The notes below the pieces were generated by a model. It was given only the letters and a program-made list of their open reading frames with translations, was not told where the DNA came from and did no database searches. Made by a program: the position numbers and the translations under genes. This document shows, in pieces, positions 50,732 to 53,952 of a DNA stretch of 64,000 bases. Position 1 is the stretch's first letter, and each line of letters opens with the position of its first letter. Origin of the DNA: a virus; the IMG/VR virus record IMGVR_UViG_3300020411_004289, positions 32,001 through 96,000 of that record. One strand, given 5' to 3'.

Positions 50732-52636
50732 ATGTCTAAGTCATTTTCATTGAACCAGCTGACCGAAGGTATTCGCCAGAGAAATCTGGGAGGCCAGAAC
50801 AAGCAGTTGGTAGAGAAGTGGTCCCGAACAGGACTTCTTCGTGGTTTGAACGGTGTTCACCGTGAGAACATGGCACGTCTCCTGGAAAACCAGGCAGGCC
50901 AGGTTCTTAAGGAGGCATCTTCAGTTTCAACCGGTGGCGGAAACCTGGCATCGTCAGGCGACCTTCGCGGTTTTACTAATATTGCTTTCCCAATCGTTCG
51001 CCGAGTTTTCGGTGGATTGATTGCAAACGAGCTTGTATCGATCCAGCCGATGAGCCTTCCTTCCGGACTGCTCTTCTACTTGGATTACACATACGGATCA
51101 CAGGTGGGTGGAGTAAATGATTCACGTCCATACACCACCGGATCATCAATTTATAATGCACCTACTGGTAAGGGTGTACGCTCTGGTTCACTAGCAGTTG
51201 GCGGTCAGTATGACCTAGCTGGTACGGGCTATACACGTGTACACGACTCAGTTGCATTCACTGCAACCTCACAGCTACTTCTTTCTGGTGCGGTTCGTGG
51301 AACGAACAACGCAATGACAGCCGGTTCGGTCGCTGAAGCAACAGGATCTGATGGTAAACTTCTACAGTTCGACCCACAGATTGCAGGCGCGATTGAAGGG
51401 AATACAACCCCGGGTGGCAACGCCGGCCCTGGAGTTTACTCTTTTGTTGTTATCGAGACTGACTCTCTTACTAACATCGACAAGACGATGATTAAGGAAG
51501 TTGCTCTTGTTCCAGACGTAGCAGGAACTCTTCCTTCTGGATTGGCCGTTATCGGAGACGATACCAATGGAAACAAGATCCAGGATGGAGACAACCTTCT
51601 TAACGTGCGACGCCTTAACAGACTAGGTACTGTTTCAGGTAACTCATGGACGTCAGCTCCGCTTGCAGACATCAGCGATGCCAATACAGGAATTCTGATG
51701 GTTGTTTCAGGTGCAATCGAAGGCTCGACTGCTGAAGTAGCGAAATTAACAGTTTCGTTCCCAGTAGAGGCTAGCCTCAACAGTGGAACTGGAGATACTC
51801 TTGTAATTCCGGCTTTCGAATCGGATTTTGCAACGTCACCATCGCCGAATATTCCAGAAATCGACATCAAGATCGAGGCCATTGCGGTCGTAGCCAATAC
51901 TCGTAAGCTACGTGCCAAGTGGTCACCAGAACTCGCTCAGGATCTTAACGCTTATCACAGCTTGGACGCTGAGGTGGAGCTCACACAGATCCTCTCCGAG
52001 CAGATTGCTCTAGAGATTGACCGCGAGATTCTTAACGATCTTCTCATGCAGGGTAACGCTGCTAACTACTTCTGGTCACGTGCACCTGGTAAGTTCGTCA
52101 ACAAGGAGACGGGATCTGAGGTTCTAGCTTCGGGTACCAACGCTCCTGGACCTGCTTTCCGTGGAACAGTTCGTGAGTGGTATGAGACTCTTGTTGAGAC
52201 TTGCATCGATGTGGGTAACCAGATCCATCGCAAGACGCTGAGAGGATCAGCTAACTTCGTCGTGGTAGGACCTGACGTTGCTACGATTCTTGAAGCTTCA
52301 GTCTTCTACAAGCCTTCCTACACTCTCGATGGTGATGGACAGGTTGGCGCTCCGATGGTTATCGGTGCCGAGAAGGTTGGAACTCTCAGCAACCGCTTTA
52401 CGGTTTACAAGGATCCTTACTTCCCAAGAAATAAGGTTCTTGTTGGCTACAAGGGCGGAAGCTACCTTGAGACAGGATACGTCTACGCACCTTACGTGCC
52501 GCTGATCGTAACACCTACTATCTTCGCTCCTGAGGACTTCACCCCGAGAAAGGGTGTCATGACTCGCTACGGAAAGAAGATGGTTCGTTCCGACTTCTAC
52601 GGTACAGTTACATGCTTGGACATGAACGTCATCTAA
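50732..52636 (+). CDS. gp23: Major capsid protein (T4 gp23-like)
   Basis: LLENQ, PIVRRVF, VSIQPMSLPSGLLFYL, TRKLRAKWSPELAQDLNAYHSLDAEVEL..EIDREI, GYKG, YAPYVPL and FTPRKGVMTRYG. Strong AAGGAG RBS. Confidence 0.97.
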   Translation: MSKSFSLNQLTEGIRQRNLGGQNKQLVEKWSRTGLLRGLNGVHRENMARLLENQAGQVLKEASSVSTGGGNLASSGDLRGFTNIAFPIVRRVFGGLIANELVSIQPMSLPSGLLFYLDYTYGSQVGGVNDSRPYTTGSSIYNAPTGKGVRSGSLAVGGQYDLAGTGYTRVHDSVAFTATSQLLLSGAVRGTNNAMTAGSVAEATGSDGKLLQFDPQIAGAIEGNTTPGGNAGPGVYSFVVIETDSLTNIDKTMIKEVALVPDVAGTLPSGLAVIGDDTNGNKIQDGDNLLNVRRLNRLGTVSGNSWTSAPLADISDANTGILMVVSGAIEGSTAEVAKLTVSFPVEASLNSGTGDTLVIPAFESDFATSPSPNIPEIDIKIEAIAVVANTRKLRAKWSPELAQDLNAYHSLDAEVELTQILSEQIALEIDREILNDLLMQGNAANYFWSRAPGKFVNKETGSEVLASGTNAPGPAFRGTVREWYETLVETCIDVGNQIHRKTLRGSANFVVVGPDVATILEASVFYKPSYTLDGDGQVGAPMVIGAEKVGTLSNRFTVYKDPYFPRNKVLVGYKGGSYLETGYVYAPYVPLIVTPTIFAPEDFTPRKGVMTRYGKKMVRSDFYGTVTCLDMNVI

Positions 52637-52667: not shown

Positions 52668-52705
52668 AAGGCGCCTTGGATTTTCCAAGGCGCCTTTTTT
52701 ATTTT
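52668..52705 (+). terminator. Rho-independent terminator after major capsid gene
   Basis: Perfect 13-bp stem AAGGCGCCTTGGA / TCCAAGGCGCCTT (52668-52680 / 52684-52696) followed by a T-run. Confidence 0.9.
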
Positions 52706-52850
52706 CAAATAACTTTTTTTTGTGTCTTTGAATCAATCTGTGTATTCATCTGTGGACTTGTGCATACATCTTTAAGGGATTGCCTAAGCAAACAACTTAA
52801 ATGCTTTAGAAGTTATGTAGATAATCTCTTCGATTATATACTTGTGAGAC

Positions 52851-52857
52851 ATATTTA
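52851..52857 (+). promoter_or_regulatory. Putative late promoter ATATTTA (near-leaderless)
   Basis: Motif lies 6 nt before ATG 52864, directly after the MCP terminator gap. Confidence 0.55.
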
Positions 52858-52863
52858 TAGATC

Positions 52864-53415
52864 ATGAGTAATAGAAGTTCCCGAGAAAGTATGACTAGAC
52901 TCAAAGCTTTAGTTAATGAACTAAGCGATCGAGATGTGCAGCTCAAAAAAGATTTTGAGTTATTCGAAGAGTTTTTTGAAAACTTTCCAATTCCTGTTAC
53001 CATGTGGTCAATCACAAAGGAAAAGACGGTTTTATCTCAAAGAGGGAATGGTTTTGCATGTCACAAGGCCAAAGACCTAGAATCCTTGTTTTTGTGCCCT
53101 ACAGTTAAGTCTCTCTCCATGGAAAACCATGAAAAAGCTCTTATGGGTGAAAAAGTAGACTACTTCATCAAAACAGATAAAAATGTATACTTTGCGAAAC
53201 TAGTCCCAAGGCTAGATGATAAGGGCGAGATATCAGGAGTATCGGGAATTGCGTGGGATGTAACAAGCAATGCAATCATGTTGGCATGTATTGAAAGCAT
53301 TCATGAATCTACAGTTGGACGAAGAGGTCAGTATAAAGAAATCCATCAGGCTGCAGATAAAGCTCTAGAAGCAAGTCGTCTCCGACGATTGCTTGATGAG
53401 CACGGAGAAGACTAA
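52864..53415 (+). CDS. Stand-alone PAS/PAC-domain protein
   Basis: A coiled coil is followed by FFENFPIPVTMW (PAS entry), HEKALMGE, and AKLVPRLDDKGEISGVSGIAWDVT (PAC hairpin ending in D-V-T). Confidence 0.75.
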   Translation: MSNRSSRESMTRLKALVNELSDRDVQLKKDFELFEEFFENFPIPVTMWSITKEKTVLSQRGNGFACHKAKDLESLFLCPTVKSLSMENHEKALMGEKVDYFIKTDKNVYFAKLVPRLDDKGEISGVSGIAWDVTSNAIMLACIESIHESTVGRRGQYKEIHQAADKALEASRLRRLLDEHGED

Positions 53416-53744
53416 TGTCAAATGATGGCCAAAATGGCTGGAATGAATATTCTAGGTTGGTTCTCAAAGAGCTAGAGTCACTCAACGACAGCATTGAAGG
53501 ACTCAAGTCAGAGCTTCAAGATGTTAAGCAAGAATTAACAAAGCTTCAAGCTAAAGAAGACAAAGTTGATGAACTGCGGCAATGGAAAGAAAGAATAGAT
53601 GATGTTGCTTCACCAACACAAATGCGCGACTTAATAGTTAGTGTAGAAGAGCTTAAAGTTTTTAAAACAAAAGCAATTACGATCTTTGCAGTTGTTCAAT
53701 TTGGAATGGCTGCGGCGATGTGGTTGATGAAAATAATGGAGTAA
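53415..53744 (+). CDS. Coiled-coil protein with single C-terminal TM helix (holin/XhlA-like architecture)
   Basis: Heptad region ELESLNDSIEGLKSELQDVKQEL and hydrophobic AITIFAVVQFGMAAAMWLM. TAATG coupling to the PAS gene. Confidence 0.55.
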   Translation: MSNDGQNGWNEYSRLVLKELESLNDSIEGLKSELQDVKQELTKLQAKEDKVDELRQWKERIDDVASPTQMRDLIVSVEELKVFKTKAITIFAVVQFGMAAAMWLMKIME

Positions 53745-53748
53745 AAAA

Positions 53749-53952
53749 ATGCCAGAAGAAAAAAAGACAACAACAAAAAAGACAACTAAGACATCTGCAG
53801 CAAAAAAAGCCACGCCGAAGTCAACTAAGACAGCTGCTTCTGCTCCTAAGGCTGCAGCACCGGCGCAACCACCTGCTGCTGAGGCAGTGCCTGTGGCAAA
53901 AGCACCGGCCCCTGCTAAAGAAACTCGAGTGCGCAGCCGACGCCGATCTTAG
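53749..53952 (+). CDS. Small Lys/Ala/Pro/Thr-rich basic low-complexity protein
   Basis: GGAG RBS, KKTTTKK..AAKKATPK repeats and an Arg-rich end. Confidence 0.55.
   Translation: MPEEKKTTTKKTTKTSAAKKATPKSTKTAASAPKAAAPAQPPAAEAVPVAKAPAPAKETRVRSRRRS

Follow-up and report, generated by a model that had tools for sequence, protein, structure and literature searches.

A PAS-domain protein coupled to a predicted tail-anchored membrane protein in uncultured T4-like phages: a possible signal-gated module of late infection

What is the role of a sensor protein devoid of any recognizable output, encoded between the capsid and the neck genes of a T4-like phage? The question is raised by a stretch of viral DNA of 64,000 nucleotides (nt), here called the window, which corresponds to bases 32001-96000 of a 106-kb IMG/VR virus record (IMGVR_UViG_3300020411_004289). 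A preliminary description had noticed there an insulated cassette, lying between the terminator of the capsid gene and the neck promoter and consisting of three open reading frames (ORFs): a 183-amino-acid (aa) protein with a putative PAS domain, hereafter PASl; a 109-aa coiled-coil protein with a C-terminal transmembrane (TM) helix, hereafter ccTM, whose start codon overlaps the preceding stop as TAATG; and a 67-aa basic protein. All these features are present in the window; the three-gene unit, instead, did not survive the comparison with related loci, since PASl and ccTM form a conserved pair and the slot that follows ccTM is variable. The constant features of the module are ccTM and a helix-bearing partner, and at least two PAS sequence types are joined to it, in different positions. 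The usual home of the module is the head-morphogenesis cluster, which opens a possibility lying outside the interpretation first proposed, i.e., a PAS protein regulating a holin-like membrane protein.

Structure prediction indicates that the PAS fold of PASl is real. The AlphaFold2 (AF2) model, built from a 42-sequence alignment (pLDDT 83.6), contains two N-terminal helices, a b-b-a-a-b-b-b core and three C-terminal helices; the strands span residues 45-51, 55-61, 98-103, 108-117, and 123-132, and helices 72-75 and 79-93 lie between them. Both this topology and the VIA-align superpositions agree with the PAS superfamily fold, defined as a five-stranded antiparallel sheet of order B-A-I-H-G flanked by helices C to F (topology b-b-a-a-a-b-b-b). 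Foldseek searches with the model retrieved 54 Protein Data Bank (PDB) chains at E<=1e-3, nearly all of them PAS domains, and the matches in BFVD were PAS proteins of phages and giant viruses. VIA-align identified 168 chains at Z>=8, and all entries among the matches listed were PAS or PAS-like; these included TodS PAS1 (5hwv_B; Z 11.1, root-mean-square deviation (rmsd) 3.1 A, 104 residues) and the PAS domain of ThkA (Z 10.7, rmsd 2.0 A, 86 residues). At the sequence level, PASl falls below the gathering threshold of the Pfam PAS clan (PAS_4, 14.9 bits vs a cut-off of 23.1), weak PAS_4 matches occur in 11 of the 42 homologues (best E 0.0019), and the PASl profile gave one marginal match only against PDB sequences (E 0.71). 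A Pfam scan of the window protein and of its homologues revealed no output domain, consistent with the initial view of a PAS protein without kinase, cyclase, or DNA-binding output. Gene callers choose an alternative start for PASl, at 52891, which yields a product of 174 aa. A second weak PAS_4 match (E 0.0026) was seen in a relative, at G003:C1:199448-199627, within a 234-aa frame far from the ccTM module of that genome.

Conservation in PASl is not uniform. Residues L13, L16, L20, R23, D24, K28, D30, F34, F37, and F38 are conserved in at least 90% of the homologues, and S171 and R172 are nearly invariant. The cysteine and histidine residues of the FACHK, FLCP, and NHE segments had been proposed as cofactor-binding; all three segments are present, and among their residues C78 and H89 are conserved, in 115 and 118 of 121 homologues, respectively, whereas C66 and H67 are variable. 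The F-x-C-P-x9-H spacing is retained even in the most divergent member, and F76-x-C78-P79-x9-H89 spans the start and the interior of the long PAS helix 79-93. H89 occupies on this helix what we take to be the position of the proximal histidine in heme-PAS sensors, and Cys78-Pro and His89 are candidate cofactor ligands, as judged from their conservation. No LOV or PYP sequence signature was recognized in PASl, by eye only. Similarly to PASl, short stand-alone PAS/LOV proteins have an N-terminal cap helix, C-terminal helices, and no enzymatic or DNA-binding output; they signal by protein-protein contact, and the likely target of PASl would be the phage membrane protein.

The predicted topology of ccTM is that of a tail-anchored inner-membrane protein with a cytoplasmic coiled coil, in line with the single C-terminal TM helix that had been noticed at first. 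About 85 residues arranged in two long helices are followed by one C-terminal hydrophobic helix; in the AF2 model (pLDDT 88), helices extend over residues 7-64 and 67-108, with a break at a conserved Ser-Pro. The most hydrophobic 19-mer comprises residues 87-105 and has a Kyte-Doolittle value of 1.89, compared to a family median of 2.11 and a maximum of 3.17; basic residues precede the hydrophobic stretch, a median of 4 residues follows it across the family, and the C-terminal helix is clearly hydrophobic in distant members too. The family is large, with 2027 clusters at 90% identity and 540 representatives at 50% identity (E<=1e-3), and IMG/VR loci with ccTM amount to 335 and 363 for two subgroups. 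Members are about 100-120 aa long; conserved in them are the N-terminal motif NGW-x-E-Y...LVL-x-EL, the motif W-K...S-P-x-Q, and a Gln within the TM helix. The gene is single-copy in the four genomes checked. ccTM matches no known family in Pfam, PHROGs, or BFVD, and a Foldseek search of BFVD with its model returned nothing below E 8. Neither ccTM nor PASl was found in 50,697 phage records searched by tblastn with PASl and three ccTM variants, which gave no match at all or coiled-coil noise at E 0.4.

The association between the two genes was examined from both sides, and the survey of gene neighborhoods confirmed their linkage. All 44 loci fetched with the PAS protein contain the PASl-ccTM pair, preceded by the capsid gene and followed by the neck gene, and the junctions of the pair measure -11 to +4 nt; from the ccTM side, PASl was found in 52 of 77 new loci, and the stop/start distances over both sets range from -11 to +18 nt. 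In the 44 loci, ccTM is more conserved (58-93% identity) than PASl (29-78%). Because the linkage is so tight and persistent, a regulatory relation between PASl and ccTM is the natural reading.

In about 20 fully flanked loci of the ccTM-side set, PASl is replaced by a coupled, all-helical partner of 72-93 aa devoid of a PAS domain. By hhalign, these short partners match PASl in the N-terminal helix (probability 83.6%, E 8e-6, 28 columns), the L-x-D-R-D-x-Q-L-K-K signature is kept in some of them, and acidic tails end the partner proteins. ccTM is always accompanied by a translationally coupled small partner, and the N-terminal helix is the only part common to the partners; the remainder differs among lineages and may be a short hairpin of helices, a canonical PAS_3 domain, or the combination found in the window, a divergent PAS followed by C-terminal helices. 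In the second ccTM subgroup, where capsid identity is about 42-44%, a short partner and ccTM are separated by gaps of 1-6 nt, and the gene order is portal, 272-aa ORF, module, 147-aa ORF, protease, scaffold, capsid gene. A single origin of the PAS form in the clade of the window was considered and discarded, as the unrooted tree of the neck protein requires at least three changes between PAS and short forms, whether by loss, gain, or exchange.

PAS domains are also joined to ccTM in other ways. In ten loci of the second subgroup, a stand-alone PAS protein of 141-154 aa, made of an N-terminal helix and the core, lies 0-6 nt downstream of ccTM. The downstream PAS proteins exceed the Pfam thresholds, with 36-65 bits for PAS_3 (cut-off 25.6) and 38.8 bits for PAS_4 (cut-off 23.1); the latter value belongs to locus L135, in which a PAS_4/PAS_9 protein is followed by a PAS_3 protein. 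A third PAS sequence type is probably joined to the module as well. In locus L139, a short partner, ccTM, and a PAS_3 protein are consecutive. A search from the PAS_3 side found ccTM adjoining in 32 of 33 loci, in either order, the contig ending at that point in the 33rd. In PAS_3 proteins encoded upstream of ccTM, the N-terminal helix finds its counterpart in positions 2-40 of the window-type profile (E 4e-5 to 6e-3); the cores of these two PAS types, in contrast, could not be aligned by hhalign (probability 1.4%). A non-redundant tally included 142 distinct ccTM genes, with a sampling biased by how the loci were fetched: a window-type PAS lies upstream of ccTM in 41 and a PAS_3 in 18, a PAS_3 lies downstream in 8, no PAS is present in 71, and 4 are on truncated contigs. 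The several attachments of PAS domains to one membrane protein are strong comparative evidence that its action merits regulation by a signal, and such a device seems to have arisen repeatedly, with different PAS domains.

These observations bear directly on the possibility that the PAS protein acts alone, its linkage to ccTM being merely positional, either as a decoy that jams host PAS two-component systems, as had also been suggested in the preliminary description, or as a small transcription regulator similar to VqmA. PASl is indeed a stand-alone PAS domain with flanking helices, and VqmA, including phage VqmA, is among its structural neighbors (7dwm_A by Foldseek; chains with Z 9.8-9.9 by VIA-align). 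Phage VqmA is a PAS-HTH quorum-sensing receptor linked to the lysis decision and shares with PASl the nature of a phage-borne PAS sensor; however, it has a DNA-binding domain, acts on transcription, and belongs to temperate phages, whereas PASl lacks such a domain and is found in a late operon of a large lytic-type T4-like genome, and VqmA superposes badly over the C-terminal helices (rmsd 6.1 A). Moreover, the partner variants have in common neither the PAS core nor the C-terminal helices, but the N-terminal helix; PAS_3 variants terminate directly after the core, partners without PAS exist, and the coupling to ccTM is seen from the PAS side as well as from the ccTM/PAS_3 side. An independent action of the PAS protein is therefore highly improbable, and the jamming of host two-component systems found no support.

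The reading that we tentatively prefer, as a possibility still short of probable, is that a signal-gated partner controls a membrane effector of lysis timing, the two forming a late module of partner plus membrane anchor. The conserved N-terminal helix of the partner would be the site of contact with the coiled coil that ccTM exposes to the cytoplasm; the PAS core, packed on this helix as on an N-cap, would alter the contact upon binding or losing a ligand or cofactor. The partner might thereby restrain or free the oligomerization of ccTM in the membrane, the output being the oligomeric state or the activity of ccTM, and the cue might be intracellular, such as oxygen, redox state, light, or a metabolite. 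The most speculative step concerns the event under control, which would be lysis timing, with ccTM as a holin accessory comparable to XhlA or SPP1 gp24.1 and the cytoplasmic partner in a role resembling that of T4 RIII. In short, a late membrane event in these related phages seems to be tuned by a sensed signal, and lysis timing is the leading candidate for that event.

T4 RIII (82 aa) is a small helical cytoplasmic protein that binds the cytoplasmic part of T, a lysis protein with a single TM helix. In the T4 T/RI/RIII system, as proposed for the module, a cytoplasmic protein tunes lysis time via a signal, and the short partners of ccTM have a size similar to RIII. The differences are that T has a large periplasmic domain, whereas ccTM has almost none, and that the lysis-inhibition signal of T4 is superinfection sensed in the periplasm, whereas here the PAS domain is cytoplasmic.

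The comparison with XhlA, already drawn in the preliminary description, stands as far as the layout is concerned and fails at the sequence level. XhlA, SPP1 gp24.1, and ccTM are all small phage proteins in which a cytoplasmic coiled coil on the N-terminal side precedes the only TM helix, located at the C-terminus, an arrangement that in XhlA-type proteins occupies about 80-110 aa and that is found in ccTM; by themselves XhlA and gp24.1 do no harm, and they kill only if a 2-TM holin is also present (PMC6316719, PMC5589764). The XhlA family PF10779 gave no match at E<=10 in the phage record, nor in 16 and then 30 diverse ccTM members, and hhalign of the ccTM profile (30 sequences) against gp24.1 returned a probability of 1.0%, a comparison whose sensitivity is limited by the single-sequence target. 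XhlA genes lie beside holin and endolysin genes in Gram-positive phages, whereas ccTM is encoded in the head cluster of marine T4-like phages, with endolysin-like matches tens of kb away; unlike XhlA, ccTM also has a coupled cytoplasmic partner, often with a PAS domain.

Besides the layout, a few leads point to lysis. XhlA is the nearest Pfam-named cluster of ccTM in the ESM Atlas (0.92, 170 of 256 features; a lead only), the PHROG holin family 689 is weakly matched by 2 of 30 ccTM members (E 2e-4), with a weak hemolysin match also, and a small protein with hydrophobic segments follows ccTM in about 8 loci. Several points weigh on the other side. ccTM has no sequence homology to XhlA or gp24.1, the likeness consisting of architecture and language-model features. 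No endolysin gene adjoins ccTM in the loci that were read at the ccTM-neck slot or at the downstream ORF; among four genomes searched, Phage_lysozyme and SLT had no match, Amidase_2 was found only in G003, about 38 kb from ccTM, which is the nearest endolysin-like match, and M15_4 gave only a sub-threshold match, in G001. A relative of 284 kb, 100% complete, has only a sub-threshold M15 match, far away. Furthermore, a protein anchored by its tail, with hardly any residues in the periplasm, departs from the canonical holin design: canonical holins have at least one TM helix and a charged hydrophilic C-terminal tail and are lethal on expression, and ccTM has one TM helix, followed by the few residues mentioned above. 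The cofactor idea is based on two conserved residues, and a few PASl members lack them. Finally, most copies of the module lie within the head-morphogenesis cluster, in the capsid-neck slot or in the portal-protease slot, and this position, together with a conservation of ccTM like that of structural genes, fits a role in assembly at least as well.

Such a role would consist of a membrane-linked step of head assembly, in which ccTM tethers or organizes prohead initiation at the inner membrane, as an analogue of the T4 gp20-gp40-YidC step, and the partner regulates or chaperones it. Indeed, the module occupies two different slots of the head gene cluster, ccTM is single-copy with a conservation equal to that of structural proteins, and T4 prohead initiation is membrane-bound, gp40 assisting the start of proheads at the inner membrane (PMC9958956). 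T4 gp40, gp67, and gp68 resemble ccTM in being small and encoded near, or acting with, portal, protease, and scaffold; however, they have no TM helix, which is instead predicted in ccTM. The identification of ccTM with gp40 was rejected (hhalign probability 0.5%), and no similarity to gp67, to gp68, or to the protein in the gp20-gp21 spacer of cyanophage P-SSM4 emerged from hhalign. In addition, 21 of the 142 non-redundant ccTM loci show no head gene within the available flanks, and it is not evident why an assembly factor should carry a sensor, yet the module acquired PAS domains more than once. On balance, we regard a head-assembly function as rather unlikely, although it deserves the most attention among the alternatives to a control of lysis timing.

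The acidic tails of the partners and the position of the pair in one clade suggest another role connected with the head, namely that ccTM and its partner are packaged as prohead-core or capsid-targeted cargo, in the manner of gp67/gp68 or of internal proteins, and that ccTM enters the membrane of the next host upon ejection. In that clade the pair occupies the place of T4 gp67/gp68, with similar sizes, and an L-x-E motif is present near the conserved N-terminus of ccTM. The equivalence of ccTM and partner with gp67/gp68 was tried and rejected: hhalign probability was 0.1% for both, and the portal-protease position is found only in the second ccTM clade, not in the window. L-x-E motifs are common in coiled coils, and it is hard to see what a PAS sensor would do within a capsid, so that packaging appears very improbable.

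The tail-anchored topology, the conserved polar Gln in the TM helix, the cytoplasmic location of the sensor, and the lack of a known family for ccTM are also compatible with a different late membrane function, such as superinfection exclusion, host membrane energetics, or a non-holin release gate, with the PAS domain sensing the redox or energy state of the host. Exclusion genes, however, are usually early and not within late structural operons, and nothing specific indicates exclusion, energetics, or a release gate; a function of this kind is unlikely, if less so than packaging.

Returning to a control of lysis timing, the same reading extended to the whole group would imply that aquatic, largely marine, uncultured T4-like phages, some of them jumbo phages, time a late membrane event, notably lysis, by a cytoplasmic PAS sensor that acts directly on a tail-anchored effector through the shared helix, without a transcription step; in this general form we consider it doubtful. 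No paper was found on a phage module joining an output-less PAS protein to a tail-anchored membrane protein, within an incomplete coverage of the literature, and there is a real chance that the module is new in kind. Cytoplasmic regulators of late phage membrane proteins are of a known kind; what is new is that the regulator here carries a sensor domain.

The genomic setting of the cassette is summarized in the table. According to Pfam, PHROGs, and related annotation, a T4-type morphogenesis block surrounds it in the window. The closest cultured relatives are distant, i.e., Microcystis phage Mel-JY01, Flavobacterium phage immuto, and Rhodothermus phage RM378, with 33-48% capsid identity, and the related contig of 284 kb was rated 100% complete by CheckV; these data indicate that the lineage is large, uncultured, and T4-like. 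The capsid-neck slot of Mel-JY01 and immuto contains PhoH and unrelated genes, and neither the PASl nor the ccTM family was found there. The capsid protein of the window (634 aa) is covered by Pfam Gp23 at residues 365-625 only, and its BLAST alignments with relatives are split into two pieces, a large N-terminal or inserted region being without assignment. The hairpin directly 3′ of the capsid gene is predicted to end the capsid-gene transcript. The late motif ascribed to the cassette is present directly 5′ of the PAS gene, with a weak enrichment: GACATAYTTA has 3 matches in the window (49082, 52848, 63436), each directly 5′ of a plus-strand gene, and 9 of 100 shuffles also give 3 matches.

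Table. Coordinates of the module and its surroundings in the window, and of neighboring genes in related loci.
Feature	Position	Strand	Remark
Large terminase	41186		
Portal	42830		
Prohead protease	45611		
Scaffold-like protein	49102		
Gp23-family capsid protein	50732-52636		Pfam Gp23 E 4e-74
Intrinsic terminator-like hairpin and T-run	52668-52696	+	13 pairs, 8 GC, loop 3, then TTTTATTTTC
Late-promoter-like motif GACATATTTA	52848-52857	+	
PASl, 183-aa cytoplasmic helix-PAS-helix protein (predicted)	52864-53415	+	without output domain
PASl N-terminal helices, residues 4-39	52873-52980	+	most conserved part of PASl
PAS core, residues 45-132	52996-53259	+	holds the conserved Cys/His motif
PASl C-terminal helices 134-150, 157-170, 172-179, then acidic tail	53263-53400	+	AF2 model
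ccTM, 109-aa tail-anchored protein (predicted), two long helices	53415-53744	+	start overlaps PASl stop
ccTM C-terminal hydrophobic (TM) helix, residues 87-106	53673-53732	+	invariant A87, F91, Q95
67-aa low-complexity basic protein, rich in A, K, T, P	53749-53952	+	variable slot after ccTM
Neck or head-completion protein	54017		
Sheath genes, two	57133 and 60354		second not scanned
A/K/T/P-rich slot proteins	window 53749-53952; L002 5886-6059; L003 3565-3717; L004 1264-1473; L011 5888-6046; L019 1307-1522; L044 636-860		
Holin-like small membrane proteins after ccTM	L131 5347-5619; L206 3268-3576; L199 5246-5647; L129 5355-5660		one subclade
MPKV-type proteins	L009 6099-6611; L024 5982-6374, 6394-6774; L025 5107-5697, 5749-6333; L028 3489-4076; L108/L116		L108/L116: downstream of ccTM
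Apparent auxiliary genes	L073, L077, L100, L114; L131 5718-6854; L149, L193		L073, L077, L100, L114: upstream of module

The slot between ccTM and the neck gene varies from 10 to 2287 nt, which ruled out the 67-aa basic protein as a part of the module. Close relatives have in this slot A/K/T/P-rich proteins of differing sequence, which nearly always end in R-x-R-[SC]-R-R-R-[SGN]; the combination of a variable body and a constant basic tail might befit a protein of the head interior or one that binds DNA. The small proteins that directly follow ccTM in about 8 loci are 90-133 aa long and have one or two hydrophobic segments and a charged C-terminus; neither these nor other neighbors of ccTM belong to a Pfam or PHROG family. 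Proteins of 126-196 aa starting with MPKV-x-[IY]T-x-x-KGLVQ, often as tandem duplicates, also occur in the ccTM-neck slot, and may be capsid decoration or other surface proteins. A 388-aa ORF between ccTM and the neck gene (L024 6919-8085) has a GIGGGGG motif and an FtsZ/tubulin-like look, and may encode a phage tubulin/FtsZ homologue. The portal gene of a distant relative (L148 605-3910) codes for 1101 aa, with an HNH endonuclease match at residues 233-345, before the portal domain, and the insertion looks like one of the intein or homing-endonuclease type. Apparent auxiliary genes often lie beside the module, i.e., ThyX-like, thioesterase-like, and glutamine-synthetase-like ORFs, recognized by eye from N-terminal sequences; one auxiliary ORF adjoining the module matches the uncharacterised PHROG family phrog_21628.

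To our knowledge, marine T4-like phages lyse their hosts by a machinery that has for the most part not been identified, and a widespread two-gene module, whose parts are small (70-190 aa), provides a concrete candidate for the late control of the membrane or of lysis. Should the module act in head assembly, it would likewise be a novelty among tailed phages, as an assembly factor anchored in the membrane and controlled by a sensor. If, instead, it acts in lysis, these phages would possess a signal-gated lysis clock operating at the protein level, without a transcription step; what determines the timing of the burst in the ocean, whether day and night, oxygen, or the energy state of the host, bears on biogeochemistry.

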